A stretch of DNA of 64,000 bases, from positions 31,620,001-31,684,000 of the forward strand of contig CDPCPM010000010.1 of assembly GCA_976551045.1 (NCBI GenBank), written 5' to 3'. The DNA is from Glaucostegus cemiculus (lineage: Eukaryota). A program made the position numbers and the translations under genes. Position 1 is the stretch's first letter, and each line of letters begins with the position of its first letter. Below, piece by piece: positions 14,620 through 63,096 of the stretch. Under the pieces are notes generated by a model. The model saw only the letters and a list, made by a program, of their open reading frames with translations. It searched no databases and was not told the DNA's origin.

Positions 14620-15195
14620 AAGTGGGTTTCCGGTGCTCAGTCTGAAGCTGCATGTAATTTCTTACAGGGAATCCACAAAATGAGGCTGAGGTTTCTCTGC
14701 AGCAGTTTGCCTGCTGGTTTGATGTTCGGTTGCTTTGTTATTCTACTTCGGCCTGTTTCCACACGGGGTAAGTGCTTTCTCTCCACCCATCACCACACGT
14801 TGCTTTACTTTATCATTGTCCGTGTGAACTCACACCCCATTGTCACACTCGCTTTCCTCTCCAAGTCCCTGAATGTGCTGCTCCCTCACAAATCCATGCC
14901 ACCGTTGCTGGAGCTCTGGTTCTGTGCCCCTCCAGTCAGGACCCTCCCCTCTTGCTGCACCGACACGGCTCTTACCACAGTCAGGAGTGACATCCCGTGA
15001 GCCTGGTGCAGAGGGAAGCTCTCCCTCCTCACCCTGCCCAGCCTGTCTGCAGCCTCTGACACGGTTGTCCACACCATTCTCCTTCAATACCTCCCCACCG
15101 CAGTGCAGCCGGGTGGAACTGCCCTCGACTCATTGATCCAGTCGCGGCCCCAGAATCACCCGCACTCTCTTCACTTCCCCCTCCCGCACAGTTCC
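14620..15195 (+). repeat. Near-identical duplicate of 49924-50499 (leader exon plus proximal intron)
   Basis: Colinear match with only scattered substitutions, visible also as near-identical ORF-track entries 14584..15000 and 49885..50304. Confidence 0.9.
14680..14767 (+). CDS. Gene A leader (signal peptide) exon
   Basis: cttacag acceptor ending 14667, ATG at 14680, [29 protein letters not shown], donor g|gtaagt, phase 1. Confidence 0.85.
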
Positions 15196-18100
15196 CAGTG
15201 GCACAGCATCATGGCGGTTAGCCCTGCCTCCTCACAGCTCCGGGGACCTGGGTTCGACCACACAATCTCTGTGTGGAGATTGTACGTTAATATGTGTCTC
15301 CACCATGGTGCACTAGCTTCTTCCCAAATCCCAAAGATGTGCGTTGGTGGGTGAATTGGCCACTGTAGGTTGTCCCTAGTGAAGGTAAGTGGCAGGAGAA
15401 TGGTGATGGGGGTGGACCGTGGAGATGGAGGTGAAGGGGACATGAGAGGAAGAGTGGGATTTAGTGCACAAGCCTCCATATCCAACAGATCATTCTCCGC
15501 AACATCCACCACATCCAATGGGATCCTACCACCAGGCACATCATCCCCTCACCCACTCTCTCCACTTTCTTATAGGACTGCTCTCTCCACGACTCCCTTG
15601 TCCACTCATCCCTCCCCACTGATAACCCCACTAGCACTTATGCCTACAACCACAACAAGTGCTACGCCTGTCCCTACACCTCCTCCCTCACCACCATTCA
15701 GGGCCCAAGGCAATTCTTCCAGGTGAGGTAACACTTCACCTGTGAGCCCGAGGGTGTCATTTATTGCACCCGGTGCGGCCTCCTGTACATTGGTGAGACC
15801 CGACGCAGATTGGGTGACTGCTTCGTGGAGCACCTTCGCTCCATCTGCTGCAACAGCCAGGACCTCCCGGTGGCCACCCACTTCAATTCCACATCCTACC
15901 CCCATAGGGACATGTCTATCCACGGCCTCCTCTACTGCCACGTTGAGGCAAGATGCAGGTTGAAGGAACAACACCTCGTATTCCACCTTGGGAGTCTCCC
16001 ACCTGATGGCTTCAAAATCCATTTCTCTAAGTTTCAGTAACCCCACTTTTTCTTTTTCTCCACTCCCCCACTCCTTTGTCTTCCCTTATTCCCATGGCTC
16101 CCTTCCCCCACCTTAATGACCCCTCCCATCTCCTCTACTCCTCCCCTTCCATCTTTATTCCATGGTCCACTGCCCTCTCCTACTGGAATCTTTTTTCTTC
16201 AGCCCTTTGCCTCTTCTACCTATCCCCTCTCCGTTTATTACATGTTCCCCTGCTCCCCCACCCACCTACCTTCCCCCTCTCACCTGGACTCGCCTATCAC
16301 CTGAACTCACCTATCACCTGCCTGCGTGTGCTCATCCCCTTCCCCCCTCCACCTTCTTATTCTGGCTTCTGCCCTTTTCCTTTCCAATCCTGATGAAGGG
16401 TCTCCGCCCGAAACGTCGACTGTTTATTTCCCTCCATGGATGCTGCCTGACCTGCTGAGTTCCTCCAGCACTTTTTGTGCATTGCTCCAGATACCAGCAT
16501 CTGCAGAGTTTCTTGTGCCTCAGGGATTTGGTGCTGATGGTCGGCATGGATGTGTTGCCTGAAGGGTCAGTTTCCACAGCACGGGACTCAATGATTCTCA
16601 TTGAATCTAATCTGCCCTGGGCCTCTCCGATTTCCCATCCTCCTGCACCCCTTCAGCCAAAGATTCGGCATTCCATTTGTTCACTGTCAGCACCAGCTCA
16701 CCATCCCACCACTGCTTCCCTCAGACTTTCCACCGTCTCAACATTTCCTGACTTCATCTCAGACTCCCCACTGTCCAGTGAGCAGGGAATAGGAGAAAGC
16801 CTGAAGCCATTGGGCTGGATCACCCTGGACACTGCCACAGTGCCCAGCAGCCTCACTGATCTGTTCCAATCCTGTGGACTGGACCAGTCCACCCACTGAT
16901 CCCGGGAGGATTCCCGCTAGACAAAACAGGTGACAAGTGCTTCAGTGAATACGTCTTGAGGCCCCATTACCCAGATCTGTGGAATATCTGGGAACGGGAC
17001 CTCAGATGCACACTACAGCCAATGACCTTTGCGCTGTTTTCAAATGCCCTGGGTAATGAAGGTCACATGATACAGTGGTTTCTCAGTGTGTATCAGCACA
17101 GCACTGTATTGGTATTGGTATTGGTGTTGGTTTATTACTGACACTTGTACCAAGGTACAGTGAAAAACTTGTCTTGCGTACCGATCGTACAGGTCAATTC
17201 ATTACACAGTGCAGTTACGTTGGGTTAGTACAGAGTGCATTGATGTATTACAGGTAAAAACAATAACAGTACAGAGTAAAGTGTCACAGCTACAGAGAAA
17301 GTGCAGTACAATAAGATGTAAGGTCACAAGGTAGATTGTGAGGTTAGAGTCCATCTCATCGTATAAGGGAACCATTCAACAGTATCACAGTGGGGTAGAA
17401 GCTGTCCTTAAGTCAGGTGGTATGTACCCTCAGGCTCCTGTATCTTCTACCTGATGGAAGAAGAGAGAAGAGAGAATGACCTGGGTGGGTGGGGTCTTTG
17501 ATTATGAACTTTCTCTGGACTGAATTCCTCAAGGGGGCAGGTCTTTCCAGCTTCTGTGGGAGGGAATGACACTTTGTTTTGCTCTCTGTTCTTGCCTGAT
17601 TTTGGAGAACTGACAACATCCAATGAATTGGGCAAGACCCTGGGGGGAGTGGGGAGGAGGGGGTGCAGTGGGAGGCACTGCCCTGTTTTTTGAGCAGAAA
17701 ATGAGTGTACAAGGACTGTATTCAGTTTTAGGTGATTATTGTGATGACTGTATTAGGCCGGATTATTCCAGACAGGCAGCTCTTCACGGGCTGTGTCTGC
17801 ATCACTGAAGGTTCTGTAGAATGTCAAAAATGACTGGAAGTCGAGAAATAATTACTTTATACGTGATGAAGGAACTGCATTTTAAGTATTAATTTTTACT
17901 TTGTTTCTCCTTCCAACAGGAAGCATAAATCGAATTTATTTCTTGGAAAATGGGGGTGATATTCTATTAAAGGGACCAGACAATCCTGGGAATGGCCCTC
18001 TTGTCTTGGAATGGAGACCACACTCAGGGCAGCAAGCCCATGTGCTGATGATTTTCCACAGAACATCGGCGGGCAACTGGAGCAGACGTAGGAACAGGCA

Positions 18101-19029
18101 TTATGTAAACCTCTATGTCCTGCAGGAGATACGTGGGGATCCGAACACCCTTAACCTGAGAATTAGGAATCCCACATTTAAACTCGCAGGATCATTCACT
18201 TTAATTCAAACACAGCCAAGGAAGCAGATCTTGCAACAGCACGAGATTTTCGGGATCAAAAGTGAGTCATGAATGAGCATTTCTGTAATTCAATTGGGAT
18301 TGTGGGGATCAGATTCCACCTGTACAGTGTGACCCTACTGCGGTATAGTTGTGGTCCAGTGGTGGTTAAGTTTCTGCATGAATAAACCTTGACATAGATT
18401 AAAAAATCTAGGGATTCAAGTTCAAGTGGAAATTTGGGATTTAAATTCAGTCAGTAATCTGCAATTAAAACTGAAACAGTTTATCTTAGTGATGATGGCC
18501 ACAATGCTGCTGGATTGTTATTAAAAACTCTCCGGTTCACTGAAGTTTGTCAAGGGGTGAAATCTGCCATCCTCAATTGGTCCGGCTGATGGGTCACTCT
18601 GGACACACAACGATGTGGTGACTGTTGAAAAGGCCCTGCAAGTCATTCTGGATAATGAGGGAAGGGAACCAGATTCTGTCCTTGCAAGTGGCATCCCCTT
18701 CCTGATAAAAAACCCTTTTTCAATACCAAGGGCAAGGTCTTTGTTCATTGCTTCTAAAATGGTCAACATGAGTAAAAATAGTTAATAATCTCACCGAGGC
18801 ATCTGCTACATGGAGAGTATTATGGTCTACTCACCAACACACTATATAGGATGGTGTTGTGTGAAATGGTTCTTTCACGGTCTGAAGGATCAAGGACTCT
18901 AAACACCAGTTTTATAGAGCAAAACCAATGTAATCACAAAGTCAAACACAGGGACAGAGTGAATGGGAACAGACACACTCACACAGGATACCACGGAAGT
19001 GAGAGAGGGATCACAACTGGGGTAGAATA

Positions 19030-19105: not shown

Positions 19106-22100
19106 TACACACAAGCATTGAATAACAATATACAACTTCAGGTTATAACACTTCAATGCTGGCCCACCCTAGTGTTGGCTCTAAAGACTACCCAGAGTCT
19201 GAGTAGAACGCTCCCTGACCATGTGGTGATGCACTCTTACCAATGATCTCTGCAGTATGGTCTCACTACTTCTGGGGTTGTCAAAGAGACTGGACTATGG
19301 GGATCAGCCCTTTTTATGGGGCTGGAAGGCTGGGTGGAGCCTTACTGTTATGATTTGAAGGAGCCAATAGTGGGGAGGTCTAGGACAAGGGCCTCTGCTG
19401 CAGCCAATGGTCAAACAAGTTCAGAGACAAAAGGACTGGTCAGACAGGTCCAGAGTCAAGAGACACTCTCACACCTGAGGGATGGGTGGAGCTGCACCTT
19501 GATTGATGGTAATATGACTTCCAGTTAATAAAGCAATGCTGTCCTCTGGTCAGTGGGGGTCAGTGTCATTACTGTCATGTGACAGCCATGTTGCTTTCTC
19601 ACAACAGATGATTTGAATCTTGCTGTGAAGACCTGCCGTAATAAGCCTCAGCATTAACTTTCTTGGACTTTGCCTGGGGGTTAACAACTTGAGAACATCT
19701 GGGGGACACCTAGCAGTGAGAAACATGGATACCTTTTCTGAATCAGTAAAAATAGTAAAAATATTTCAGAGTCACCGGGCTGAACCTTGCAGGTTCCACC
19801 AGCAGTCACCGGGCGTTCAGCCAGCATTCCCCTGCGTGAATTCCACCCACCGTTTCTGAACACAGAATTCATGAACTTGCTGACCGCTGCACCAGTAAAT
19901 ATGCCAGAACTCCCCGTCGCTGCACTCCGCATCCTTGCCTTCGCAGACCGTGGCAGAGGATTTTAAAAATTGTGACTTTATGTTGGGGACAAATTGTGAC
20001 AATTTGGGGAATTGTGCACGTTTCTGGTTGCTGCACCATAGGAAGGGTGGGGATGCACTGGAGAAAGTGCAAAGAAAGTTCACCAGGATGTGAAAGAAAT
20101 TTAGTTATGGAGGGGTTGGACTTTCAGAAGGCTGAGGAGTAACCAGATCATGGTGCATAAAACAATAAGAGGCATAGATATGGTAGATATCAGAATCTTC
20201 TTCCCATGCTAGGGCTGTCAAAACCAAGAAGGCATAAAGGGAGAGGTATTGAGGGGATTTTAACACAGAGAGTGGCTGATATCTAGAACTGGCTACCAGG
20301 GGTAGTGGTGGAACCAAACACAGCCGTTACATTTAAGAAACATTTAGACAGGCACTTCGATAGGCAAGGCACAGAAGGACATGGACCTAAGGGGGCAAAT
20401 GGGATCAGTGCAGAGAGGTAGAAGGTTGGCATGGACATGATGGGCCGAAAGGCTCTATTCTGTGCTGAACAACTCCATGACTTTGCCACTCTAATTCCCG
20501 GCACTGACAGCGGGAAAACTGCTGGCGGATCCAGCATCCGGCTGGAACTGGTGCAGGATCCTTGAGGTCTCTCATTTCACTGGAGAATGTGCAGGCATGA
20601 GACAGGAACGACAGAATAAGAGAAGTCTCACGATTCTGTTCGTTTCTTTGCTGCGCCGACTTTAATCATTTAAAGCATTGTCAATTATTTTTATTTGTTA
20701 CGAAATTTAGAAAACATGCATTTATTATGTTTTTAATAGATTTGGATACCTGAAAATCAGGGACATTCAGAACAATTCCAAGAGTTTGACAAATTTAACA
20801 GAGAGAAAATTTAGGGCTGTGGCTTTGCCTCTGTCAGATGATTTCTCATTTGGTTTGTGGGCCAGGCTCGTTCATTTCCGCCCGTGAGACCAGAAAACAT
20901 CAGACGATAACATCAGACGAGGACTCTGTGTGACACAGCGCCGCCTAATCAGCTCCGGGGTGCTCTTGGTCTGTATTCAGCCTAATGCATTTGAGCGCAA
21001 CTGAGTGCAGGACCCTGGGGAATCCGGGCGGCGCCTCCCTCAGCACAACCCGAGCCGAGGCGGTCTGAAGACTAGGGAGGAGGCTAAACAGTGACACCCA
21101 CTGGACCGGTGGGTACAGCTGGGTCCTGAAGTGCGACCCTGGCCGAACCACAGTCCTGACTGTACTGGCCCTGGACTATTGCTCCGGAGGTGTAATTGCA
21201 CCAGAGCTCAACAGAAAGTCAATCACTGTCTGGAACTGTCTGTAATGTCACGGATCCCGCACCAGTTCCGACGGGGACAATTACAGTCTGGAGTTTGATT
21301 ATTTCTTGCCGTGTTTCGGGAGGGACTGAAAGTCAGGGCGGGCATTTGGAGAACCGGCCTCTCCTGAAGATCCGTTCCTCATGGAGGCTCAATGATCGGA
21401 GCCCTGCTCAGGTGCATTTTGGCAGCTTAGGAAGTTAAATAACACCTGGGACTGTTATGATCTCACTCCGAATCTCATTGGTCTGTTTCTCACAGTTGAG
21501 GCGAGTCCACAGCGGCCTGCGGTGGGCAGCGACGTCACCCTCAGCTGTACCATCTCCAGACTCCCAGATACAGTCAGTCTTCAGTGGGAACCAAAGGACT
21601 CGTCCCAGCAGAACAGGAGGAACACTGATCAGATCTGTCTGAATAACACGGTCTATCTGATAGTCCGAGGCGTTACAGTGGAGGATGGGAAGTCGTATGT
21701 GTGTCAAGTGCGGGAAAACGGAGGCATTGTTCACACAAGTAAAGCAGATTTTGTTGTAAGCAATGGTAAGTGTCAATAACTGACATTAGGTATTAAAGAG
21801 GCACTTGTGTCATTGGTGGTTCACATAATAGTGCTTTGGGTGAACAGGGCGTACCGGGGCAATTTTCCACATGGTTTCATAGATGCCGGTGTTGTACTCG
21901 GGCAGCTTGTCTGGAGGTGCAGGTAGCTCTGAAACAGAGATCTTCAGTGCACAGCTGGGATGTTGTCTGATCCCATTACCTTTGTTATATACATTCTCGG
22001 GCAACTGTTGCTATCAAGATACTGGAGGATAGTTTATAAGTTAAACTAGAGATTAAAAAGGACTGATGATGCTGGAATCGAGATGAAAAAGCATCTTCAG

Positions 22101-23266: not shown

Positions 23267-26200
23267 AAGGTTCACCGGAACTCACCTATCCCCTGCCTGT
23301 GTGTGTTCCTCCTCTCCCCCACCTCCTTATTCTGGCTTCTGCCCTCTTCCTTTCCAGTCCTGATGAAGGGTCTCAGCCCGAAACGTCGACTGTTTATTTC
23401 CGTCCATAGATGCTGTCTGACCTCCATTGCTCCAGATTCCAGCATCTGCAGAACTTCTTGTGACTCCGTAAGGTTTGATAGCTCTGTTTGGGGTTGTTTC
23501 AGGAGGAGCATCACCTGAGGTGCTGTGCCGACGTCTGATTTAAAAAATATATATATCACGAGATTAAACCGTGTTGACGACCAACCTCCGATTAACAACC
23601 CTGGCCGAGCCGAGAGGAACCCCGACTAATTTTTCAGCGTGAATTAGGCATTGGATGCTGCTATAAATTCCGGCCTCGCCTGCGGCGAGGGTCGTCTCTC
23701 TCCCCTGTCCTCACGCCGCTCCTCCACCTGTGAATTTCTGTTACATCTCCCCCTCCTCACCTTCAACCCCAGCCGGGGGGAGGAGGGGATGATCTCTGCA
23801 CGGACCCCACCACACCACGGCACTGGCGCCTGCAAAGATCTGAACCCCTCAAATTCACCGACGTGGGCGGTTCAGTCCCCATACAGACAACCACTGGGCT
23901 GGTCACATCCGTGGTCTGAACGGCACTGACTCTCGCACCCTAACAGACAGATTCATCTCCCGGGCCGCGCTGGGCAGCCCCCGGGAGGTTTGATTTCATT
24001 CTGGGACATTCCAGGACTATCCGGAAGGGTTGACAACCCGAATGGGAACACACAGAAAATAAATCAACCTAATTAAACCCAAAAGATGTTATTTTTATAA
24101 ATATCTGATGTGGTTCGGTGTGGAATTCATACAAGATGTCATATTTTGAAATTTGATCAGCTGAAGAAAACTCAAAGAATGTTGATATTAATGTGTTTAA
24201 GATTTTTTGGCTCTTTTCTGTAACACGGCAAGTATAAAATTCTAGCATGTTCTTCCCTATCTCTCTGACACAGATTTATATCAACAGAGCTACACACTTT
24301 ATCGCTCGGGCACAGATCACAGCGAGCTTCACCTGATTTGTTTCCACATATATAATGTCTCGTACTTTAATGCTGCTTGGACCTGGCGTTCACATCACCT
24401 TCAAGAAAAGGAGAAGAAAGTGGCATCTGTAACATACTCACAGCCCATCAGTGTCAACAGGGCCGAGTTCGGGAATCGGCTGGTGACCTCAGTGAAACGC
24501 TTTAACGGCAAGGATTTCAGTGTGAGGATTGTCCCTGTGCTGTTCGAAGATGCCGGTGATTACTCGTGTTATCTGGGATCAAATCTATATCTGAACATTA
24601 CACTTATCACAGTTAAAGGTAGGTTGTTAAAGGACAATTAAAGACACAGATAGAGGACAGAAGGCTGTTGTCATTTTCAGTGGTAAAATCATTGTGTGAA
24701 ATGAAATGATTTTCTTGCTTCCACAGTCACAGCTGAGCCACCTGATGCAGTGACTGAGGGAGACACCGTCACCCTGACCTGCTCTGTGTCCGACGTCACT
24801 GAACCAATGAGACTGGTTTGGATCAATGGTGATGGCGAAATCGTGGGAGAAAAAATATTCAACGAACAAAGTCAGGAAAAGAAATCTTTCCAGCTGATTG
24901 TCCCGAAAACTGATGGTGTCCGGGGGAAATGGACGTGCTGTTTCCTTCATTACAACATTCCAAGATTTTTCATCTCACATTCCCTAAAGAACAGTAAGTG
25001 TCTCTCTTTTGCTTCTTCTCGCCTCCATCGAAAGTTACTTTCACTGTCTCGTCTCTCACTGGGATGACCTCCTGGCTTCAGGGACTCAGCATTGACGCTC
25101 AGTAGAGATCCTGAGTGCGGGTCGATCTTTATACCAGAGACAACCATTCATTCCTCGCACCGCAGTTCACATCACGTTACCAACAAGTTCCATATTTAGA
25201 AGGGTTCAGACCACAGTTTGGAAGCACACGGAATATTGCTCAGTGAAATTAACCACTCCTGACTCGGACACGCGGGGGTTAACTTTGAGTGTGGGTGACA
25301 ATGCCTTGTGACTGATAGCAGATCAGCCACCCATTTTGCATCTCTCCTGATTTGAGTTCAGAGTCAAATTTGAGCTCAGAGTAGTTCTGGCCTGGATTCT
25401 GCGGTACCGCTTGCCAGACGGCAGTGGGACAAATAGGTCGTGGGAGGGATGAGAAGGGTCGTCTATAATTCGATAAACCTTACCTGTGCAGGCACGTGTA
25501 AGGCCATCACAGGAACGGTAACATATTGGTTAGCACAATGCTTTCCAGCGCCAGCAACCCGGGTTCAATTCCGGCCACTGTCTGTAAGGAGTTCGTACGT
25601 TCTCCCCGTGTCTGTGTGGGTTTCCTCCGGGTGCTCCGGTTTCCTCCCAGATTCCAAAGACGTACGGGTTAGGAAGTTATGGGCATGCTATGCTGGCGAC
25701 GGAAGCGTGGCGACTCTTGCAGGCTGGCCCCTCCCCCCCCCCCCCCCCCGCGCCCATAAATCACTACGCAAAAGAAGTATTTCACTGCTTGTTTAGATGT
25801 ACATGTGACTAACAGAGATCTTATCTATTGCTACAGCCAGAACGACTGCAGGGATGGAGGGAAGGGTGGAGAAACCATTGCCGGTCATTTCAGAACATTT
25901 CCACCCAGTTCCATGGTGTGTGGGGTGGGAGGAGGGAGCCTTGACCGCCAACAACAGGGTCCTGAGCCGTGGGGTTGCGGCCACTAATTACATCAGTAAA
26001 TTGTGTTCCAAGCATGGAGAGAAAGTTAAAGACAAAAGACTAGAGACAACGTGACAGGTCAGTTTCAGAGGTCTGCTCCAAATTGCATCTGATATTCCTG
26101 ACCATGTCCAATGCCATGGGAGACTGGTCGGCAGAGTGTCCTGAGAAGGTCGTCAACCTGCTGCTCCGGGTTCCTGACATGCACTGAAGATGTGATAGTT

Positions 26201-32366: not shown

Positions 32367-32427
32367 ATGTTGAGAGGGCTGGTCATATCTTTCTTCATCC
32401 TGCTGCCTGGGTCCGTTTTCACACAAG
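32367..32427 (+). CDS. Gene B leader (signal peptide) exon
   Basis: ATG 32367, MLRGLVISFFILLPGSVFTQ, donor g|gtgagt, phase 1. Confidence 0.85.
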
Positions 32428-32559: not shown

Positions 32560-32898
32560 AAGAGTCCCTTGCTCTTTATGTCCCGGTAGGGAAAATGTCC
32601 ATCGTCCTGAATGGATCGGATATTCCCGCCGGTGGCACTGCTGTCTGGGAATGGAGACCACACCGGGGGCAGCCCAGCACAAAGGCGCTGGTCGAGGTGA
32701 AGGCGGAGGGACGCGGCTGGAGAGCAGAATGGCTCAGTGAAGGTCTGAAGAGCCACGGACCCAGGTGGCATCGGATCAACGACTCTCGCCACCTTACCAT
32801 CGAAAAGGCTGCTTTTGAAGCTGCCGGTCTGTTTATCATCAGACAGACGGAACCTGAGAGGAAAATACTGAAACAGTGTGAAATATTTCTCATCAAAG
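32560..32898 (+). CDS. Gene B D1, V-like Ig domain lacking the canonical disulfide
   Basis: gtcgcag|AA acceptor, g|gtaggt donor; EESLALYVPVGKMSIVLNG...VWEWRPHRGQ...FEAAGLFIIRQTEP...EIFLIK; homologous to D1 of A and C. Confidence 0.85.
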
Positions 32899-39687: not shown

Positions 39688-39808
39688 GCGAGACCCCGCC
39701 ACTGCTCCAAGGGCAGCAACAAGCGAAGAATGCGGGTGCCTTCGGGCCAGCGTTAGGAGGACTGGTGATCGCTCTCCATCCCGCTACTTGGATTCGTTTT
39801 CACACAAG
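39688..39808 (+). pseudogene. Degenerate copy of the gene B leader exon
   Basis: Aligns by eye to ~32270-32455 including the end cgttttcacacaag|gtgag; ATG replaced by GCG and a frameshift present. Confidence 0.72.
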
Positions 39809-49983: not shown

Positions 49984-50071
49984 ATGAGGCTGAGGTTTCT
50001 CTGCAGCAGTTTGCCCGCTGGTCTGATGTTCGGTTGCTTTGTTATTCTACTTCGGCCTGTTTCCACACGGG
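49984..50071 (+). CDS. Gene C leader exon
   Basis: tttcag acceptor ending 49971, ATG 49984; peptide identical to the gene A leader; g|gtaagt donor. Confidence 0.85.
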
Positions 50072-53000
50072 GTAAGTGCTTTCTCTCCACCCATAACCAC
50101 ACGTTGCTTTACTTTATCATTGTCCGTGTGAACTCACATCCCATTGTCACACTCGCTTTCCTCTCCAAGTCCCTGAATGTGCTGCGTCCTCACAAATCCA
50201 TGCCACCGTTGCTGGAGCGCCAGTTCTGTGCCCCTCCAGTCAGGATCCTCCCCTCCTACTGCACCGACACGGCTCTTACCACAGTCAGGAGTGACATCCC
50301 GTGAGCCTGGTGCAGAGGGAAGCTCTCCCTCCTCACCCTGCCCAGCCTGTCTGCAGCCTCTGACACGGTTGTCCACACCATCCTCCTCCAACATCTCCCC
50401 AACACAGTGCAGCCGGGTGGAACTGCCCTCGACTCATCGATCCAGTCGCGGCCCCAGAATCACCTGCACCCTCTCCACTTCCCCCTCCCGCACAGTTCCC
50501 TCCGGCTCCCTCCGACAAACTATCCCGGGACCCTCCTGTTTCCCATCCTCACGCTGCCCTTCGGTGACACCAACCGAAATTTGACCGCTGCTTCCACTCG
50601 TTCACGGTGGGCACCACCTCGACATCTCCACCCCCTCCCTCGGCCCCGCCACCGTCTCCAAATTCCCAGCATGAATGTGGGACGCCCGGTCCAGGATGAG
50701 CAGAAATCACACTCCCCCAGCCACACCCCCACCAACACCACCCCACCCACCCCCCACCAAACCAATCCCGTGAAGCCTTAACCCACTGTCGCCAGTCCCG
50801 TCACATCTCTCTCCCCGGCCACCGACTCTACCCGTCTCCCGCAACTGCCTGAGACTGACCAGACCGGTAGCAGCCACGGAATGTCAACACCTACAAAATT
50901 AGTGATAGCAGAGCTGGGATGAAGGAAATGTGTTTGAAATATTAATTCCTTCATTGTTCCTCTCTCCGACAGAAAACAGACATCAAATTTATTTCTTGCA
51001 TGAAGGAGAGGACGTTGTGTTAAAAGCACCAGCCAATCCTGGGAATGGCCCTGTTGTCTGGGAATGGAAACCCCACTCGGGGCAGGACATCCAGCGGTTG
51101 GCGACTTTCAGCAGACGGGACTGGGGAGAGTGGAGCGTACAGTGGAACTACGATTGGAGAAAGAGTGGCTGGTACCAGGAGCTGGGTGTGGAGAGTGGTA
51201 CTGTCAATCTGAGAATTAGCAGACCCACCTTTAAATTTGCGGGATTGTTCACTTTGACTCAAACACAGCCGAAGAAGCAAATTCTGAAACAATACGAGAT
51301 ATTTGGGATCAAAGGTGAGTGGCTCCGACAACGATCAATTATGTGTTTGTAGATATTTTCACGTAAAAAGATGAACGATACTGTGAACCGTGAGATTTCT
51401 TTCACCCAGGGAAGAGAGAATCTCCCATTAAAACAACCAGGGGAAAGATGCGTTAAGTCACGTCGTCGAATTTGTTGTCATACGCACCAGTAATTGTCTG
51501 CACAGGGGCAGTGATAAACGTGTTTGCAGCAGCATTACAGGCACATGGTACTGAGGTACAACTCTCAGCAGAGAAACACAAATTAAACATAAACTGTATA
51601 CAAAATGTGCAAGAAAGAAAACATTTAGGGCCCAAAGCAAATTTGAATGTGGTGCAAAATGGCCATAGTGTTACTGCACTGTGACAAGGATTAGGCGTTC
51701 TGAAACTAAATGGTTGAAGGGAAAATAGCTGTTCTTAAGCTGTTCTTGAACCTGGTGGTGTGGGACCTCAGGCTTCTCTACTTCCTGCCCACTATTAGCT
51801 GTTGATGTGTTGTGATGGTTGGCAAATTGAAACAGATCCAGGTCATCTCTGAGGCAGAAGTTGACTTGCACCATAATTAAACTTTCAAAGCACCTTATTA
51901 CAGTTGATGTAATCACTTCCAAACAGCAGTCATTCAGGCAGTTCACCATGCTCTTCTTGGGCACTGGTACAATCCATGTCTTTTTGAAGCAGCTGGGGAC
52001 CTCAGACAATAGAAATGAGAGTTTGAATATGTCCGTAACTACTTCAGCCCGTTTGTCCACACTGGTCATGTATGCCATCTGGACCAAACGCTTTACATGG
52101 GTTCATCCGCTTGACGTATGCCTGGATATTGAGACTGAGATTACAGAGTCATTGCAGGGATGTGGGTGTGTCATTGTTCTCCCTATCAAAGCACGCAATA
52201 AAAGGCATTGAGCTCATCGGGGAGTGATGGATCATTGTCACTCATGCCACCCAGTCTTACCTTGGAGGCAGTAATATTGTGCAGGCCCTGCCACAGCTGT
52301 AGAGCATCCATCTGTGAATTCAGTTTAGACTGAAATTGCCTCTTTGCACATACAATAGTCTTCCCAAAGTTGTACCTGGATTTCTTGTATGACTCCGGGT
52401 CACCAGCCCCAAACTCAACATATCAAGGCCTCAGCACTTTATGAATCTGCTGGTTCATCCAAGGCTTCCGATTAGGGAAGACTTGGAATGTTTATGTGGG
52501 TTTACACTCACCCTCACGCATCCTTCTGAATTCTGTGGCCACTGCAACATTTTCATTTAGGTCGACTAACAAATCCTCTACATGGTCCAGCCACTGACTT
52601 GAAGCTATCTTGAATTGTTCCAATGATTCTTGATCATTTCTTGTCAAATGGTTGACATAAGTAGAAGTAATTTGATTATTTCAACAGGAATTGCGAGCAA
52701 TGTACTGCACAGTGAGTATTATGGTCTGCTCACTGGCCCACTGGAATGTGGACTGAATCCTGTTGTGAAACCCTGAGATGATTTGTGGCAATAAACCTCA
52801 GCACAGAGGGCCAGGGGTGAGATAGGACAGTGACACTGCTGCTCAGTGTTGGTCGAGATCCCAGAGGAAGTCCATCGTCTGTGGAATTGTAACTCTGCCA
52901 GAGAGTTCACACCTTGAGGGGAGTTGGGGAGACGTATCAAGGAAAAAATAGAAAAAAAGATATCAAATTAGTTACATTTAAAACTCATTAGCCTTCATAA

Positions 53001-56000
53001 ATCAGATTCACACGGCTGAGTCTTGCAGGTTCCACCAGCAGTCCCGCGTGACTGTGAACAAGTTAAAGACTTCCATCCGCACGTTTCCGGGTGTGGAATT
53101 CCCTGATTTGCTGACAATTCAGGCAGGTGAATCTGCTGCGCTCTACAGGGAGTCCCGTGGTGGAACAGGAATACGCTGATATTCCCTGGCACTGACAGAG
53201 GGAACACTGCTGATGGATCCGGTGCCCGGTTGAAGCTGGTGCAGGATCCGCGAGGTAACTCGTTTCACTGGAGGATTTACAGCGGCGAGAAGCGCAGGGC
53301 GGAAAGAGGGAAGTGACACGGTTCTGTCTGTGTCCGTTTGCGATAATGCTTCTAATTATTAAAACATATTCATAAGTGTAATCATTTATCATTCATAATA
53401 ACCCATTAATTTTGGAAGTTATCTTAAGTGACCTCATTTTTAATGATTTTGCATAGTTAGTCCCTTTCAGAACCATTCCAGCAGTTTAAGAGCATTAACG
53501 GAGGGGAAACCTGGGGATGGGGCTTCACCTCCTGGAGATGATTCTCCACAGTTGTAGATGCAGGGCTGTTTCTGTCACACACCCCAGACCCAAGAATATC
53601 AGGCAAGCCCCCAGCACCAGACAAGGCGTCATCAACTGGCTTCAGGATGCTCTAGGCCAATGTTTCGCCTTATGAAACCAACCCAGGTGAATGCAGGACC
53701 CTGGGGAATCCGAACTGTGAGTGCGGGAGGTGCCGCCCTCAGCACAGCCCAGGCCAATACCGTCTGAACACCAGGGCTGGGGCTGAATTGCGACTATAGC
53801 GGGAGGCTGGGCAAGCTAGGACTTTATTCAATGGAGCACAGTCGATGGAGGGACCGTATAGAGGTGCATAAACCATGAGGGACATTGATAGGGAGAATAC
53901 ATACTGTCTATTTCTTAGAAAAGGGGAATAGATGCCTGCCACCAGCTCGTTCACTTTAAAACTATTTATTTAACTTGCCGTATTTAATTTAAACTTCCGT
54001 AGTTTTAGTGGTTTTTTTTGTTCAGTGTGTCTGTGTGTCTCTGCTGTTTGTTATTTAATGGGACGTGCATCTGAGGAGGACGGTATCTCGCTCCTACGCA
54101 TACTATGTATGTATATGGTTGCGACAATAAAACTGGTTCTGATTCTGATTCTAGAAAATAAAAACTAGTGGGCACAGGGTTAAAGTGAGAGGGAAAAGAT
54201 TTAAAAGCGACGTGAGGGCCAACTTCTTCAGCCTGGATGTGAAGCAGATGTGGAAGTGTTTGAGGCATGTGCATTGAAGCAGTTGATCAGGAAAGTCTCG
54301 AGGAATATGGGCTAAACGCGGGCAAATTGGACAAGCTCAGAGCGGCATTTTGGTCAGCATGGGTCGACTTCGGCCAAAGGGCCTCTGACACCGGAAAGTT
54401 AAGTTACTTCACACAGTCTGGGGTTTGGTTATTTCTTGCCGTGTTCCAGGAGGGACTGAAAGTCGTTTGGAGAACCAGCCTCTCCTGAAGAGCCGATCCT
54501 CACGGAGGCTCAATGATTGGAGCCCTGATCAGGTGCATTTTGGCAGCTCACTCATTTAAATAACTTCTGGGACTTAATGACCTGTAATGTGGGTTTTGTG
54601 CACAGGCTCCAGTGCATATGTCGGGTGGTGTTGCGGAAGTGAGCTGGCACATTGACCACAAAGTCGGACTGGTGCCTTCTCCAGGTCTAATAATGCAGCC
54701 GCTGCACTTCCAGTGCACACAGCTCTGGTGAGATTCCATCACCTGCCCACTGTGTTGTCAACAGCCACAAACACCCTGCAAGCCGTGTGTCCCTGAGTTG
54801 AACCCTGACAGTGCAGCAGGTGCAGGGGCTCTGCTCTGCCCCACTGACCCTGGTGAAGTCAGCTCACGAGAATCTGACCGAACTGTGTTATTCTATGTCT
54901 TGAATGCACATATGTGTCATCAGTCTGACTCACTCACTCAGCAGGGTAGAAGTGCTGATAATGGGCAGATCCTAAAGTCAATGTTGACCCAATCATTAGA
55001 CTTTTCACGTCACCACTCTGAATCTCGTTGGTCTGTTTCTCACAGTTGAGGCAAGTCCACAGCGGCCTGTGGTGGGCAGTGACGTCACCCTCAGCTGTAC
55101 CATCTCCAGACTCCTAGATACCGTCAGTCTTCAGTGGGAACCAAAGGACTCGTCCCAGCAGAACAGGAGGGATACTGATCAGATCCGCCTGAATAACACG
55201 GTCTATCTGATGGTCCGACACGTTACAGTGGAGGATGGGAAGTTGCATGTGTGTCAAGCGCGGGAAAACGGAGATATTGTACGCACAATAGAAGCAGATT
55301 TTACTGTTGGTACAGGTAAGTGTCACCAAACATTAGATACTAAAGAGGCACTTGCATCATCAGTGGTTCGTGTAATGTTGGGTGTGCGCCCCTTGGAAGT
55401 TTGTAATCCGTGATTAACTGCTGACCTGTATAAATTTCAGTATTACTGAGAGCGAGATCTCCATAAAGTGTCTTTGTGGAGCAGCTGCATGGTTGTCTCT
55501 GTGTGACAGCACAGGAAGGAGCGTCTTCTGTGATATTTGATCATTAAATTACCTTCGTTTGATGGTTTAACTTACCTTCAATCATCCAGTACCTCAGACT
55601 GAGATCCTGGTAAAGAATCATGTCAAAGTATTATCGAGAGAGTGGAGTCCCCACAACAAGCACCAGCACCTCCTGCTCACACCCAGCACTGGGGGTCAGG
55701 GTGCACACATCAGCTCTGAACAACAAGCCATCCTCTCTCCCTCACTCGCCCTTCCCGCCGAGTCCTGCTGCTGTTTGCAGTGATTCCAGCTGCTGCAGAC
55801 TCAGGCTTCAGACCAGCGCGCAGCTGGGAGCAGGACCAGGGGAAGAGGGAAGGGCAGGGAATCAGTAGGTGCGAATGGGAGAGGGATGGATGGGAAGAAC
55901 GGGAATAAAAGGAAGGTTGGGATGAGTTACGACGAGAGGAAGAAGGCAGCTGGTGGACGGAGGGAAGTGACAGACGTTGTGGGTGAGTGGGGGATGATGA

Positions 56001-59000
56001 TGGTAACATGCTGGGTCTGTGTGAGAGGGAGCGAGAGGGTCAGGAGACGTTCACTAACCTCACGGGGGATGTTGTTAAGATGCCAGACCCGCTCATTCTT
56101 CATGGCAAAACCCACCCCATGAAGATGCCCCTTCTGATTTGCCACTCCAGGAGAGTGTGTTCCCAGCGCCTTGTTCTGTAAGCTCGCCACCTCCTGCTCC
56201 TCATCTCTTGCTCAGTTCGGTCATGTCAGTGTCAGAACATCTGAGTCCCCGGGCGATGGTAGCAGCGCAGTGTTCAGTTCTGTCACTGACAGGGCCGTCC
56301 ATGCCGGTCCTGAGTCCAATTCCCTGGCTTCCTACCGAGGAGCTGGAATCGACCGCCCGAGACTTGTTAGAAAGTGCGAGGGCCGTTCCACGGCAGCTCC
56401 CACGCATTCGGATAAGAGGTTTTTTTTCTAAATGTGGTTGAGAATTTTTCCTCCTTCTCTCTGTCACTGAGCTGTTCTAAGATTCCATCGTGTTCTCCCG
56501 TCTCTGTGATACAGATTTATATTTCAAGAGTTACACCATTTATCGCTCCAGCGTAGATCACAGTGAACTCCACCTGATCTGCTATGATGAATATGTTAAC
56601 TCTAATGCTGTGTGGACCTGGCGCTCACGTCAGCATCAGGACCAGGAGAAAGAAATAGCGTCTGCCACAAGATATCAGCCCATCAGTGTCAGAAGGGCCG
56701 ACTTTGGGAATCGACTAGTGACCTCAGTGAATCGCTTCAATGGAAAGGATTTCAGTGTGAGGATTGTCCCGGTTTTGTTTGAAGACGCCGGAATTTACAA
56801 ATGTTCTCTGGGCTCATACACATTTCCGACCATTGATCTAATCACAGTGAAAGGTAGGAGAAAGGTTTTGTTGTTGCTTTTACCGATGAAGTCACTGTTC
56901 AAAATCTAAATAAACCGCTTGTTTCCACAGTCACAGCTGAACCACCTGATGCAGTGACTGAAGGAGACACCGTCACCCTGACCTGCTCTGTGTCTGACGT
57001 CACTGAACCAGTGAGACTGGTTTGCATCAATGGTGATGGTGAAACTGTTGGAGAAAAGTCACTGAGTGGGGAAGAGAAATCACTGAGTCTGATTGTTCAG
57101 AAAGCTGACAGAGGAGTAAGGAACTGGCGATGGGGTTTGTTTCAGCAAAACATGCTCCGGATTCTGGTCCCGTTCTATCAGGAGCCCAGTGGTAAGTGAC
57201 TCAGGGTTTGCTCTTCGTACTTGGAATCAGGATCACATTTTGATGTCACTTATTGTTCTATTTGCCTGCAGCGACCCCTCCTTTATATCCTGCATGGGTG
57301 GCTCTACCATGGGGCAGTGCCTGGGAATATGGAATAGGAAAGGGTTAGATAGATCTGAGGGCAGGATAAAATGCTGGCACAACATTGTGGGCTGAAGGGC
57401 CTGTACTGTACTGTAATGTTCTATGTTCTATGTTTATTGATCTATGTTCTAATATTAGGGGAACCTTCTTCACCCAGGGATTGGTCAGTACCTGGACTAC
57501 ACTGCCTGAAAGAGTGGTTGACAGCATTTAAGAAATGTGTAGATGAGAACTTGAATTGCCTGGGCACAGAGGGTGATAGACCAAGTGATGAGTGATGGAA
57601 TTAATGTAGAAGAGTGCACATGGGTCAGTGTGCATGTGTTGGGCCAAATGGTCTGTTACCATGCTGTATGATGCTATGATTCTCTGAATCATAACTAACA
57701 ATGTACTAAAGACAAATTATCCAAAGACCGTGACAATCAATCTTCTCTATGCCACTCATAATTTTATAAATCTTGATAAGGTCACCCTTCAGAAAGGAGT
57801 CCCAGCCTATGCAGCTCTCCTACTAACTCAAGACCTCTGTTCCTGGCAACATTCCTGTGAACATTTTCTGTACCATTTCTAGCTTAATCACATTCTTCCT
57901 GTAGTATGGTGACCAGAAATACACACCATATTCCAGTTGTGGTTTCATCAACATTTTGTCCAGCTGTAACATGACACCTTAACTCGTGTACTCAATGTTC
58001 CATTCAATGAAGGAGTAATGAACAACTTACTAAAGACAAATTCTCCGCAGTATTCCCAATGACACAGATCAGATTGAGAAGTTGTCTGATTTTTAACATT
58101 TTTGTTTCATTTCCTCGCAGCAAGTGGGAATTCTATTTACTTTTTCCATGAGGAAGGGAACTTCGTACTGAAGGGGCCGGACAATCCTGGAAATGGCCCC
58201 ATTGTCTTGGAATGGAGGCCACACAGAGGGCAACAAACCACAAAGCGATTGGCCACTCTTCGCAGAGAAGATCAGCGGTGGGCCGTAGAATGGAGTGACG
58301 AGTATAATAAAATGCCTGGCATTTCCCAGAAGATGCATATGGACTGGGGCACCCTTAAAGTGGGAATCAGGAAGCCCACCTTTGAACTCGCGGGACTGTT
58401 CAGCTGGACTCAGACACAGCCTGGTGTGACAATCCTGAGACAGTGGGAGGTATTTGGGATAAAAGGTAAGTTGATCAAGCAGTAGAAAGAATTTAAGTGT
58501 ATGATTATCTCTAACCATTTCTACAAATTCCTAACAGAATGTGAGGATTGTGTCCAATCATTTTGGTCTATAATCCAGCTCAAAATTAATCACTCATTTA
58601 AATCATCCCGGTGGGCAACATTCTTTTTTGCCATTTATTTTGGTCTGTTTGGTACAAACCTTGTTGCAGAGTTGGAGGTGATGGGGCCGAGTTCATGGTT
58701 AGAGCTGAGGGAGGTGGCTCTGCTCTCCCGAATATCTAACAGGAGGAAACTACAGCTCATCCGTGACAAAGTCTCAGATCTGGCAACTGGAATGACAGCA
58801 GAACTGTTCACGTTCAGCAATATCACTCATTGAAATTGACAGTAACTTTGAGATTTCCACACACATGCACGGCTTTATATACAAGTCTGAAGTTGCTGTC
58901 AGTGATACCCAGCTCTCCCATAGGGCAGACTCTTTTACACTCTTCCTCAGTGGGATCATGGGAAGTTAATGAACTGATGAAAATGTGTAGCATTTACAAA

Positions 59001-62000
59001 CTGCTCTCTCTGACAGGTGTAAGATGTGGATTCATCAAATTGTCATTTACATGCTAAGCCAAATTACTGCTCAGATTCCCCGACATAATAAAATATCAGA
59101 AATTGATGGAAAGACTCCGCAAGGCAAGCAGGAAGCATTCGTATCAGTTTCCTGTAAACACCAGTGAAAGAGAGAACTAAAGTAATGCAGGTGGCAGAGA
59201 AATGTTATTGAAACCTGAGGAATTTCTCTGACAGAATGAAGACATGTGGCAGGGCAGGCTTGGTAGCGTAGTGGTCAGTGTAACACAATTCTGGCTGCTG
59301 TCTGTAAGGAGCTTGTACATTCTCCCCATGACTGCTTGTGTTTCCTCTGGGTGCTCTGGTTTCCTCCCACATTCCAAAGATGTGCGGGTTAGGAAGTTGT
59401 GGGCATCCTATGTTGGTGCTGGAAGCTTGATTACACTTGTGGTCTGCCCCCAGAAGCCTCTATGCAAAAGATGCATTTCACTTTGTGTTTTGATGTACAT
59501 GTGAGTAACAAATATATCATATCTTATCTAAAAAGAAAAATGAGATAAGTTCAAGCTATTGTGGCTGTGCAATTTGTTGCTGGTGTGGTTCTGACCTACT
59601 GGTACACACACTGTATAGCGTGAGGATAATGAAAACAAGTAACTCAGACAGTAATGGTTCTTGTGTGGACAGAGAGAAAGAGCATATTTTCTACAGTTGG
59701 CAGACTGAATATTAAGTCCAAAAGGCTGCAACATGTCCAGAGTGAAGATGAGATGTTGTTCCCAGAGCTTGTGTTAGGTCTCCTGGTAACAGTGCAAGAG
59801 GCCACCATGGAGAGATCTGAGTGGGAGTGTGATGGGGAATTCACTGTTGTTGACTGTTTCTCTTTCCGCAGATGCTGCCTGAACTGATGAACTTTTCCAG
59901 CATTGTCTGTGTTTCAATTTTCTAGATTCTTCTTTTATATTTTATTTTGATCCCTCATCTAATACATTGACTTTATGCAAGAGGAATACAATTACCCCAG
60001 GTAAACAAATCAGGGCATAGAGCAGAAAAGAATATAAAGTAATTATGATTTAATTTTCAAAAATTATGCTTATATTTCAGCCACATCTATATTCTTAAGT
60101 TTGTGTTCCAATATATTGAACTCAGTAAACTCTTTGAAATATCAACATTAACTTTGTTTCCCCCATTTCATTTTCTGTCCGTGAGAAGTATTCAAAGTGA
60201 TAGTCAGCACAGCAACACAGTAACATCATATTTCCATCAGGTATCCCCTTAAACTGACCCGACACCAATTGACACTGGGAAAGTGAAATCTGGGATACAA
60301 AGAGGACTCTGTCCTTGTGGGCAGCTTTTTCATGTTCCAAAGTCAAATTTCTGTACTAGGCCATTGTTAGTCAAGAGATGGACGGCACATAGACCATGGG
60401 AGGTTTGAGAGAGGCATTGGGAAGCGGAGATGGTGCTGAGAACTTGCCTGTGGAAGCTGCTCAATTGTTTTGGATGATATTCTCAGGGTGCAGTGGGTAG
60501 ATGAGGGCCAAGGGGGACAGGTGGTCACTACCTGAAAGTGTTGATTACCATCACTGAGCATGGCTGGTCAGCATTCAGCCGACTGTCTGGTTGTGGGAAA
60601 AGGTCAGTACTGCCTGCAGCAGGTCAGGCAGCTTGTGGGGAACTGAACCACACGTCATATGTCTGTTTCCACAGTTGAGGTGGACTCACAGAGACCTGTG
60701 GTGGGCAGTGACATCACCCTCAGTTGCACCATCTCCAAACTCCCAGATGCAGTCGGTCTTCACTGGAAACCAAGAGGCTCATCTCAGCGGAACAGGAGCA
60801 GCAACACCGATCAGATCCACCTGAATAACACCGTCTATCTGATGGTCCGACACGTTGGAGCAGGAAATCCCAATCTGTACACATGGGAAGTGGAGGAAAA
60901 TGGCTCAGTTGTTCTCACTGGAGACACAAGTGTTGAAGTGGATCAGGGTGAGTCTAAAGCAGCCTTGCAGCAGGTATGAAATAGTTGCTGATATCAAACT
61001 GTTCCACATATTGTACAGTGAGCACAAACTCCACCATGGGCTTTCACTGCTGGATGTGGCCATTGCTTTTACCCTGGGCACAGGTGTAAATATAAAATGG
61101 TGGCACTGAGATTGAGGGAGTCACCCAGGTGAACCAATGGATTCAATTCAACTCAGCTGCAGAAATAAAAGGGAATAAATTCCATCAATGGAGAAAAGCA
61201 AATGGTCTTCTAGTCTATAATGGAAAAGGGACATTTTAATTAAAGATACAGATACCGGTGTTACAAGATTAGGGTCTTGGCTCAGGGATTCTTTTGGGTT
61301 GAGTGCTGGAGGTCACTCACTCCAATGATCTGAGTGTCTGATATTTTGGGGGTGTTTGCATCTTCCCAATTATGGTCATATCTCCCCTCTCCCTCTCCCT
61401 CTCCCTCTCCTTCTCCCTCTCTCTCTCCCCTTATTGCAATCTTCTATAAACAATTGTAATAGATAGAGGTGCTCAGTTCAATGATTGCTGACATGGTGTA
61501 ACAGATTGTCTAACATCACTTTGCTGGGGTCTGCATTTGGGGAAGATGGGCTTTGTCACACAGATGGCATTTGAACAATGGTCACCTGGGCCGTCAACCA
61601 GCGTATTCCAGCTCCCAGCCGACTTCCCTCTCCCAGTGAGGCCCTCCCTGCTGACATCCCAGGAACTGAGTGTTTGTCCCCGTGGAAACTCAGACACTCT
61701 GTGGATAGTCGTCTGTATCTCAACATCTATAAAAATCTAATTCTTTGTTCCCTGTCCCTCTCTTGCAGATTTACACAATAAGACATACACAGTTTATCGG
61801 TCAGACAGAGATCACAGTGAACTCGACCTGATTTGTGAGGCTTCTGCTGAGCTCACTGAAACCAAATGGACTTGGAGGTCACAGTTTGTCCAGAATCAAG
61901 AGACGGAAATAGGCTCTACTCACAGATCTGAGCCGATCGATGTTGACAGGAGCTACTTTGAAAATCGACTGGGAATCACAATGGCAAATGTGAATGGCAA

Positions 62001-63096
62001 GAATATCAGTGTTAGGATTGTTCCTGTTCGGTTTGAAGATGCCGGAGTTTACACATGTTCTACGGGATCATATAAACATGTGACCATTGAACTAATCACA
62101 GTCAGAGGTAGGAGACAGAATGTTGCAGCTTTTGATGACAGGTCATTGGGGAAGAGTTTCCACTTTCAATGCAGGCTGAGATCTCAGCACAAGTTTCCCC
62201 AAATACTTCCCCAATTTGAAAAGAGTTCCTTCTCCACCGGAACTGCTGCTCAAACTAATTTGCATTTTACTCGACAAAAGATTCACCTGGTGTTGAGGTT
62301 GTCCCAGTGGTTGGGGTGAAGGAGGCACCCAAAGGAGAACTGGTTGGTAAATAAATTAAAGGGTCCCTCCTGCATCCAGTTCCCATCACTGGTTTGGGAC
62401 CTGCTCAGGGAGGGTCCAATTAGTTAATGGAGTAGCATGTCTCACAAGGGGTTTGCAAACTTGCTGCAGCAGGACTGAGCTGTGGCCCCATGGATCACCA
62501 GCCCCAATGAAAATCCAGGCAGTGCATATCCACGTCCTCCGTGCGCAATGTGCTCGAGCACAGAGGGACCTGGGACAAAGCTGTGGTAACTTTTCTGAAA
62601 GTTTCACTCTAATCTTCTTAAAACCTGCCTTTAATTTCTTTTCACCCTGAAGTTCCAGTTTATTCTTGGAGCCACCTTGAAGCTTGAAAAGGATATCATT
62701 TCCAAAGTGATAGCAAAGGTTGTCCGTGATCCTTTGGGTTAGTTTGACAGACATCATGGTTTAAGAACACATTGGGTAGAAACTCCAGCTATTATTTTAA
62801 TTCTCAATGTATTTCTTCTTCCACAGCCACAGTTGAACCATCTGATGCAGTGACTGAGGGAGACAGTGTTACCCTGACCTGCTCTGTGTCTAAGGTCACC
62901 GAATCAATGAGACTTGTTTGGATCAATGGTGATGGCCAAATAGTGGGAGAAAAACTTTTGAGGGAGTCAAGGCAGGAAGATAAGTCTTTACAGCTGCTCA
63001 TTCCAAAAGCTGATGCAGACAAAAGGAAATGGACATGTGGTTTGTTTCACCAGAATACACTCAAGGTTTTCATTCCGAATTATCCAAAGAGGAATT
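49984..63096 (+). CDS. Gene C: IgSF receptor with leader plus at least 8 Ig domains, (V-C2-V-C2)x2; 3-prime end outside the window
   Basis: Exons 49984-50071, 50973-51314, 55046-55315, 56515-56853, 56931-57191, 58121-58465, 60675-60947, 61769-62107, 62827-63096; all GT-AG phase 1; 2527 nt open (842 codons + 1 nt). Confidence 0.78.
50973..51314 (+). CDS. Gene C D1 (Cys-less V-like domain)
   Basis: ccgacag|AA acceptor, g|gtgagt donor; ENRHQIYFLHEGEDVVLKAPANPGNGPVVWEWKP...FAGLFTLTQTQP...EIFGIK. Confidence 0.9.
51475..52630 (-). mobile_element. Rex1/Babar-type LINE, internally deleted
   Basis: DIFKLSF...VPSCFKKTWIVPVPKKS...LND...ITSTVIRCFESL RT N-terminal motifs. Confidence 0.72.
55046..55315 (+). 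CDS. Gene C D2 (C2-type Ig)
   Basis: cacag|TT, g|gtaagt; GSDVTLSC...LQW...EDGKLHVC. Confidence 0.92.
55930..56190 (-). mobile_element. RTE-clade LINE endonuclease fragment
   Basis: HGVGFAMK...ERLLTLSLPL...VTIIIPHSPT resembles the RTE APE motif GVGFAI...ERLMTLRLPL...SAYAPT. Confidence 0.68.
56515..56853 (+). CDS. Gene C D3 (V-set Ig)
   Basis: atacag|AT, g|gtagga; HSELHLIC...WTW...FEDAGIYKC. Confidence 0.93.
56931..57191 (+). CDS. Gene C D4 (C2-type Ig, Trp/Cys swapped)
   Basis: ccacag|TC after a 77-bp intron, g|gtaagt; EGDTVTLTC...LVC...NWRW. Confidence 0.88.
58121..58465 (+). CDS. Gene C D5 (second Cys-less D1-type domain)
   Basis: ttcctcgcag|CA, g|gtaagt; [34 protein letters not shown]...LAGLFSWTQTQP...EVFGIK. 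Confidence 0.88.
59250..59530 (+). mobile_element. V-SINE
   Basis: V-domain tttcctctgggtgctctggtttcctcccacattccaaaga; same 3-prime part as 25510-25825. Confidence 0.78.
60675..60947 (+). CDS. Gene C D6 (D2-type, F-strand Cys replaced by Trp)
   Basis: ccacag|TT, g|gtgagt; GSDITLSC...LHW...LNNTVYL...NLYTWE. Confidence 0.88.
61769..62107 (+). CDS. Gene C D7 (D3-type V-set Ig)
   Basis: cttgcag|AT, g|gtagga; DHSELDLIC...KWTW...FENRL...FEDAGVYTC. Confidence 0.92.
62827..63096 (+). CDS. Gene C D8 (D4-type C2 Ig with WxC)
   Basis: ccacag|CC, t|gtaagt; EGDSVTLTC...LVW...RKWTC. Confidence 0.9.

Follow-up and report, generated by a model that had tools for sequence, protein, structure and literature searches.

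The stretch of DNA analyzed here, called the window throughout, comprises 64,000 nucleotides of the Glaucostegus cemiculus genome (C10:31.620-31.684 Mb), and window positions are counted from its first letter. It is part of a cluster of immunoglobulin (Ig) receptor genes shaped like CD4 and LAG-3, which likely encode paired immune receptors. The window contains genes A, B, and D, one broken leader, and one frameshifted D4 exon, with Ig domains numbered from D1 onwards; cluster genes outside the window carry G numbers.

14680..14767, + strand: leader exon of gene A, its protein identical to the gene D and G8 leaders
17920..18261, + strand: D1 of gene A, predicted V-set Ig domain without cysteines (model, structure match)
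21496..21765, + strand: D2 of gene A, C2-type, with YxC and without WxC (Pfam)
24274..24618, + strand: D3 of gene A, V-set, both cysteines present (Pfam)
24727..24993, + strand: D4 of gene A, C2-type, WxC (Pfam)
26492..26595, + strand: membrane exon of gene A, central lysine with a stop right after it, predicted activating, no tail (RefSeq model P0063 orthologous)
32367..32427, + strand: leader exon of gene B
32560..32898, + strand: D1 of gene B, 89% identity to G6 D1
33922..34191, + strand: D2 of gene B, a truncated gene or pseudogene
39730..39808, + strand: broken leader-like relic, related to the gene B leader
40117..40330 (end approximate), + strand: D4 relic of G6 type with a frameshift, probably the former D4 of gene B
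49984..50071, + strand: leader exon of gene D
50973..51314, + strand: D1 of gene D, 93% identity to G8 D1
55046..55315, + strand: D2 of gene D (Pfam)
56515..56853, + strand: D3 of gene D, inside a tract of 925 bp that matches G8 at 95.8% identity
56931..57191, + strand: D4 of gene D, F-strand cysteine lost (WRW)
58121..58465, + strand: D5 of gene D, second D1-type domain, no cysteine
60675..60947, + strand: D6 of gene D, second D2-type domain, one remaining cysteine
61769..62107, + strand: D7 of gene D, second D3-type domain (Pfam)
62827..63096, + strand: D8 of gene D, WxC
C10:31,685,780-31,689,749, outside the window: membrane exon (arginine) and tail exons of gene D, with one intact immunoreceptor tyrosine-based inhibitory motif (ITIM) and another in which Cys replaces Tyr

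Exon anatomy

In a splice-site and frame check of the window, every one of the 14 Ig exons, which lie on the + strand, had an open frame flanked by AG/GT and was phase 1-1. Strict exon candidates numbered 21 in the window, alternative boundaries included, versus 0-3 in each of 20 composition-preserving shuffles, which rules out a repeat or chance artefact. The leader, D1-D4, and membrane exon of gene A splice to 471 amino acids with no internal stop. The leader and eight domains of gene D give 842 amino acids without a stop, and this gene extends beyond the window. Gene B represents a G6 copy that has decayed; neither a D3 nor a membrane exon was found downstream of its D2, and the D4 at 40117 is frameshifted.

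Pfam assigned Ig families to D2-, D3-, and D4-type exons of the window. No Ig Pfam match was obtained for any of its four D1-type exons, and 13 of the 15 D1-type exons of the whole cluster lack cysteine. The AlphaFold model of D1 has a V-set Ig fold (predicted local distance difference test score 87), and its best match among V-set structures has a Z of 13.9 and a root-mean-square deviation of 2.1 over 104 residues. D1 therefore models as a V-set Ig domain despite the missing cysteines and the missing Pfam match. The WxC motif is present in 12 of 14 D4-type exons of the cluster and in none of the 15 D2-type exons.

These results bear on a preliminary description of the window made from its letters alone. 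Its paralogous genes plus relics were recovered as two intact genes (with four and eight Ig domains), one decayed copy, and relics, and the proposed organization of one phase 1 exon per domain applies to all 14 exons. Splicing, which it had named as a check, yielded the two stop-free products of genes A and D. The four- and eight-domain forms stand, but the supposed two-domain form is the decayed copy of G6. Likewise, WxC in the D4-type domains holds for two of the three in the window, the exception being D4 of gene D.

Predicted signalling types in the cluster

The cluster spans about 350 kb of C10 and contains about a dozen genes on both strands. In genome searches, one D4 exon as query gave 15 matches and a divergent member gave 45, every one of them within C10:31.38-31.73 Mb, so that, with these two queries, the family appears confined to one locus in Glaucostegus cemiculus. 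For the census 464 kb around the window were read, and exon ends were corrected afterwards. Ten genes have both an ectodomain and a membrane exon, four with eight domains and six with four.

Two opposed signalling anatomies are found on one scaffold. G1, G2, gene A, and G12 contain a lysine at the center of the membrane segment and a short, nearly absent tail, while G4, G6, G7, and G8 have a neutral membrane segment and a multi-exon tail with two or three ITIM-type motifs; the inhibitory members also have a proximal YxN. Gene D joins its membrane arginine to a single ITIM, and G5 has an inhibitory-type membrane exon for which no ITIM was found. Besides these ten genes, the cluster holds gene B, the pseudogene G3, and stray leaders, as well as two isolated membrane exons, one a spare of the lysine type and one a dead exon of the inhibitory type. 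The dead exon lies just before the lysine membrane exon of G2 and the spare one after G1 (C10:31,411,810-31,411,893 and 31,401,344-31,401,445, respectively). Both are traces of switching between signalling types.

The sawfish orthologue of gene D (P0013) has neither the membrane arginine nor the loss of the second ITIM tyrosine, and members in Mobula have a membrane arginine with short tails.

Variation and sequence exchange among paralogs

The mean identity among paralogs is 45% for D1-type and 62% for D2-type domains, and the mean column entropy of eight paralogs is 1.16 for D1, 0.94 for D3, 0.80 for D4, and 0.50 for D2. Variation is concentrated in the middle of D1 and in the B-C loop of D3; variable D1 and D3 domains sit on a homogenised D2. 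G2 and G4, a lysine gene and an ITIM gene, are inverted neighbours; their D2-D4 differ by a synonymous divergence (dS) of only 0.02-0.08, and their D1 domains are unlike. In the comparison of gene D with G8, D1, D3, and D4 have dS values of 0.02-0.04, D5, D7, and D8 are older, and the flanks of the 925-bp tract are mostly 70-88% identical. Such near-identical tracts between genes of opposite type are as expected from gene conversion. Gene A, gene D, and G8 also have a leader block of about 580 bp in common (95-96% identical), and this shared block suggests a common regulation of the three genes.

Occurrence in other vertebrates

With D3 as query, a word-indexed protein search gave 62 matches, from sharks and rays only. 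A word-indexed profile search gave 108 matches, 106 of which were chondrichthyan members at E<=6e-44, chimaera among them. The impression that the family is exclusively chondrichthyan was overturned by a full profile search (72 matches at E<=1e-30, 152 at 1e-10), which revealed full-length members in bony vertebrates, namely coelacanth, bowfin, sturgeons, frog, and eel, among the 10 of its 150 rows that were identified. In a further search, 30 of 32 matches came from eels, tarpon, and salmonids. The bony vertebrate members keep the cysteine-less D1, the WxC of D4, and the ITIM tails, and some have lost D1. The lysine form of the membrane segment, with the motif GYLxVK, is common to sturgeon and bowfin members, too. 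The origin of the family is shown by these predicted proteins to predate the split between sharks and bony fish, and the genes likely form a family of paired immune receptors that reaches back to the first jawed vertebrates.

Among 126 chondrichthyan database proteins, a number that includes isoforms and partial models, 54 have ITIMs, 22 a membrane lysine, six an arginine, one both, six are plain, and 37 are without a detected membrane segment. The proteins closest to the cluster exons are from Pristis pectinata (mostly 80-95% identity per exon), and RefSeq model P0063 shows the layout of gene A. Genes of orthologous clusters include Pristis LOC127570086-90, Chiloscyllium LOC122556490/491, and Scyliorhinus LOC119965406/407, and a named member in bowfin is LOC136752729. 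Most relatives go under the names "uncharacterized" or "hypothetical"; a few carry an automatic label instead (obscurin-like, VCAM1-like, CD276 homolog). A true obscurin, CD276, or VCAM1 was rejected, these being automatic labels on a few members. One of them, the nurse-shark protein AGQ17915 ("obscurin-like"), has an accession number adjoining that of nurse-shark CD8 (AGQ17914), and because of this adjoining number a nurse-shark transcript of the family has likely been deposited already.

Relationship to CD4 and LAG-3

Below the family, the full profile search listed named coelacanth CD4 and LAG-3, together with further proteins that were labelled CD4- or LAG-3-like from their tail motifs, two of them with Pfam CD4-tail matches. 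A profile of the family's D3-D4 scored 149 and 139 against LAG-3, 115 and 120 against CD4, 109 against the family's own D1-D2, 61 against DICP-like and 52 against butyrophilin-like proteins, and 150 against the multi-domain protein XP_078461712, all of these scores being biased upward, as the comparators had been chosen by the family's own profile. XP_078461712 (P0190/P0199) is a multi-V-C2 membrane protein with tyrosine motifs, and it scores as near to the family and to LAG-3 as those two to each other.

In a Foldseek search with the whole ectodomain, LAG-3 and CD4 occupied ranks 1-4. The template modelling (TM) scores were low (0.24-0.32), and therefore only the domain order and the domain types match the CD4 and LAG-3 structures. 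LAG-3 also accounted for four of eight weak sequence matches in the PDB. In the ectodomain model, strands run continuously across D1-D2 and across D3-D4, which published excerpts describe as a trait of CD4 and LAG-3. With language-model features (Atlas), G6F-like and CD4 clusters were nearest among the informative names.

A quick tree of D3-D4 units (88 rows) placed shark, ray, chimaera, coelacanth, sturgeon, bowfin, teleost, and frog members in one clade outside CD4 and LAG-3, with 99 in the Shimodaira-Hasegawa-like approximate likelihood ratio test (SH-aLRT), and a second quick tree with 31 of those rows gave the same clade (SH-aLRT 96); in both trees the deep nodes were unresolved, G6F-like proteins were left out, and no shark CD4 or LAG-3 rows are known to be included. 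Neither the Cx(C/H) tail of CD4 nor the single-exon (F/Y)xxL(D/E) tail of LAG-3 is present in the tails of the family.

The family thus has the V-C2-V-C2 order and the WxC in D4 in common with CD4 and LAG-3, and one exon per domain is also described for shark CD4 and LAG-3 in excerpts of PMC10768021. In contrast to them it is multi-copy, with four- and eight-domain forms and a cysteine-less D1; it has no WxC in D2, whereas CD4 and LAG-3 are described in partial sources as carrying it in both D2 and D4. As predicted from the tails, it would signal by a lysine or a double ITIM rather than by Cx(C/H) or FxxL(D/E), and it forms a separate clade and lies at a P4HA2-ARAP locus. Because of the absent tail motifs, the D1 without cysteines, the restriction of WxC to D4-type domains, and the clade of its own, the family is not CD4 or LAG-3. 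By these comparisons it is a relative of the V-C2 unit of both and a member of neither gene lineage.

The flanks of the cluster are P4HA2 (a better match than P4HA1) and an ARAP gene, with ARAP3 as the sole ARAP among the matches. Both P4HA2 and ARAP3 are located at human 5q31, which suggests a 5q31-like neighbourhood. Weak support for this neighbourhood comes from bamboo shark, in which the LOC number of an NDFIP1-like gene is close by. C10 also carries an IRF gene of either IRF1 or IRF2 type. The immediate flanks are not MHC (major histocompatibility complex) genes, and a single MHC II beta match lies on another contig, contigs not being chromosomes.

The preliminary description had proposed a CD4/LAG-3 shape, which is borne out by the V-C2-V-C2 ectodomain and by the profile and Foldseek matches. 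Its expansion from a CD4-like gene is not, since the family has a clade of its own and a P4HA2-ARAP locus, and a sister lineage is the better reading. The flanking genes, which it had suggested for a synteny check, were read as above; trees, which it had proposed per domain, were made of D3-D4 units and separated the family from CD4, LAG-3, and DICP-like proteins, but did not include G6F-like ones. The searches of protein databases, also suggested there, reached chondrichthyan and teleost members of the family. The term "elasmobranch" locus proved too narrow, given the relatives in chimaera, coelacanth, sturgeon, bowfin, teleosts, and frog, and, judged from the predicted proteins, the family is larger and older than had been supposed.

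A probable family of paired receptors and its alternatives

Clustered ITIM and charged short-tail paralogues, shared parts of the ectodomain including near-identical tracts across the two types, and pseudogenes are among the hallmarks by which paired receptors are recognized, and these were found in the cluster. The paired-receptor family and the birth-and-death evolution proposed at the outset both agree with the lysine and ITIM forms, the pseudogenes, and the conversion tracts. We therefore regard it as probable, with good confidence, that the window belongs to a cluster encoding paired immune receptors on a CD4/LAG-3-shaped scaffold.

The opposed logic of ITIMs and charged membrane residues has been treated elsewhere (excerpts of bioRxiv 10.1101/2021.06.11.448072). 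Following established receptor biology, the lysine members would activate through a DAP12-type adaptor, and the ITIM-tailed members would inhibit through the recruitment of SHP-1/2. The arginine form, gene D, may couple to FcR-gamma, by analogy to KIR2DL4, and two membrane exons of zeta/FcR-gamma type are present in the Glaucostegus cemiculus genome. The variable V domains D1 and D3 would bind the ligand. Inhibitory members may read a self ligand and set the threshold of the leukocyte, and their activating twins, remade by duplication and conversion, may answer pathogens that mimic or exploit this ligand.

Several observations weigh against paired immune receptors. Leader exons of G1, G2, and G6 were not located in the cluster. 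A search of the genome for the DAP10 family gave no match, and DAP12 was not searched for. The bamboo-shark genes LOC122556490/491 are absent from the searched part of single-cell marker tables. In addition, the comparison of codon models M1a and M2a favoured, for each of the four domain types, a class of sites whose omega is about 3 (p 8e-6 to 4e-3), and thus the signal of positive selection is not restricted to the V domains. This signal is given little weight, because conversion can inflate or fake it.

A different function would follow if the family belonged to thrombocytes or erythrocytes and were related to G6F-like and G6B proteins, tuning the activation of clotting cells by collagen or matrix ligands instead of serving leukocyte recognition. 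G6F-like clusters were indeed the best informatively named feature matches of the sawfish orthologue (ranks 2-3) and of a tarpon member (ranks 1-2, with a G6B cluster third), and G6fL, according to excerpts of PMC3528668, has four Ig domains and a YxN like that of the inhibitory members. However, this likeness to G6F-like and G6B was measured by features, not by alignment, and G6fL is described in such excerpts as signalling by an ITAM (immunoreceptor tyrosine-based activation motif), which is not present in the family tails screened; none of 128 new rows of the full profile search had an ITAM tail of G6fL type. The family is also clustered and paired, and a multi-copy cluster with conversion would fit pathogen pressure better. 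We consider a clotting-cell family unlikely.

The paired, clustered organization is itself reminiscent of the DICPs of ray-finned fish and coelacanth, for which partial sources describe D1-D2 or D1a-D2a-D1b-D2b units in tandem, one exon per domain, ITIM and charged forms, and pseudogenes, and the profile search picked up DICP-like proteins at a weak level (E about 1e-12; the label of P0261/P0262 as DICP-like is our assumption). The same sources place the DICPs in the MHC and describe C23/C104 as kept in their D1, whereas here D1 has no cysteine pair, and the immediate flanks are P4HA2 and ARAP. Given also the profile score of 61, versus 115-149 for CD4 and LAG-3, and the position of DICP-like proteins outside the clade, it is very improbable that the family is the chondrichthyan arm of DICP. 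It is equally hard to credit that the genes are additional paralogues of CD4/LAG-3 with a role as T-cell co-receptors for MHC class II. The Foldseek ranks, the PDB matches, and the modelled continuity of strands would agree with this, but the tails, the D2 without WxC, the separate clade, and the low TM-scores do not, and, according to excerpts of PMC10768021, a single CD4 and a single LAG-3 are already present in sharks.

Other systems are alike mainly in organization. The skate MDIRs are likewise multigene activating and inhibitory Ig receptors of cartilaginous fish, but they resemble CD300, TREM, and pIgR (excerpts of PMC3031540), and no MDIR-named protein occurred among the matches of two word-indexed searches, a comparison of names and not of alignments. 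KIR, LILR, Siglec-5/14, and CEACAM1/3 have activating and inhibitory twins that are kept alike by conversion. The logic is shared with the family by analogy, with no specific sequence kinship shown.

No description of the family was found in titles and abstracts of the open-access literature, one supplement of PMC3964593 lying outside the search, and six of its locus ids returned zero papers there. This is in agreement with the preliminary description, which had called the locus a candidate for an undescribed one. The paired receptors proposed here thus apparently represent an undescribed, ancient family of jawed vertebrates related to CD4 and LAG-3. It is an open question by which germline receptors the leukocytes of sharks and rays have their activation threshold set, and close relatives by which to root the origin of CD4 and LAG-3 have been almost lacking. 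With this family, named genes open to testing are available in about 20 genera of chondrichthyans and in several lineages of bony fish, salmonids among them. The family indicates that a paired system that diversifies can be built on a scaffold of CD4/LAG-3 type, and that sharks and bony fish inherited the activating membrane motif from their common ancestor. The surprise is limited insofar as the gene models are already available from automatic annotation and paired receptors are a familiar principle. A bolder possibility, which we hold to be speculative and rather improbable, is that the family, as a third branch of the CD4/LAG-3 lineage, has provided natural killer-like cells with a diversified, MHC-reading set of activating and inhibitory receptors since the first jawed vertebrates. 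It would then be the missing equivalent of KIR in sharks and rays, and a living model of the scaffold that gave rise to the specialised CD4 and LAG-3.

Other observations in the genome

Two bony-fish-type queries found no CD4 or LAG-3 in the genome. One weak match was rejected as it proved to be butyrophilin-like, and the CD4-like query gave nothing. At C200:133,000-203,000, butyrophilin-like V and C exons are clustered, with members on either strand. Triosephosphate isomerase is normally single-copy. Its exons gave 57 matches on about 17 contigs, in spaced multi-exon copies, possibly by amplification or assembly redundancy, and because of this copy number the gene is useless as a marker of the CD4 region in Glaucostegus cemiculus.

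The P4HA2 gene next to the cluster (- strand, about 31.277 Mb; L056:7049-7399) contains two tandem variants of one catalytic-domain exon, which suggests mutually exclusive splicing, as is known for catalytic-domain exons of P4HA1. Within the window, the introns contain many short interspersed repeats, and frame fragments at 7200-9700, 10460-10880, 41580-42120, and 51670-52420 are what we take to be retroelements similar to long interspersed nuclear elements.

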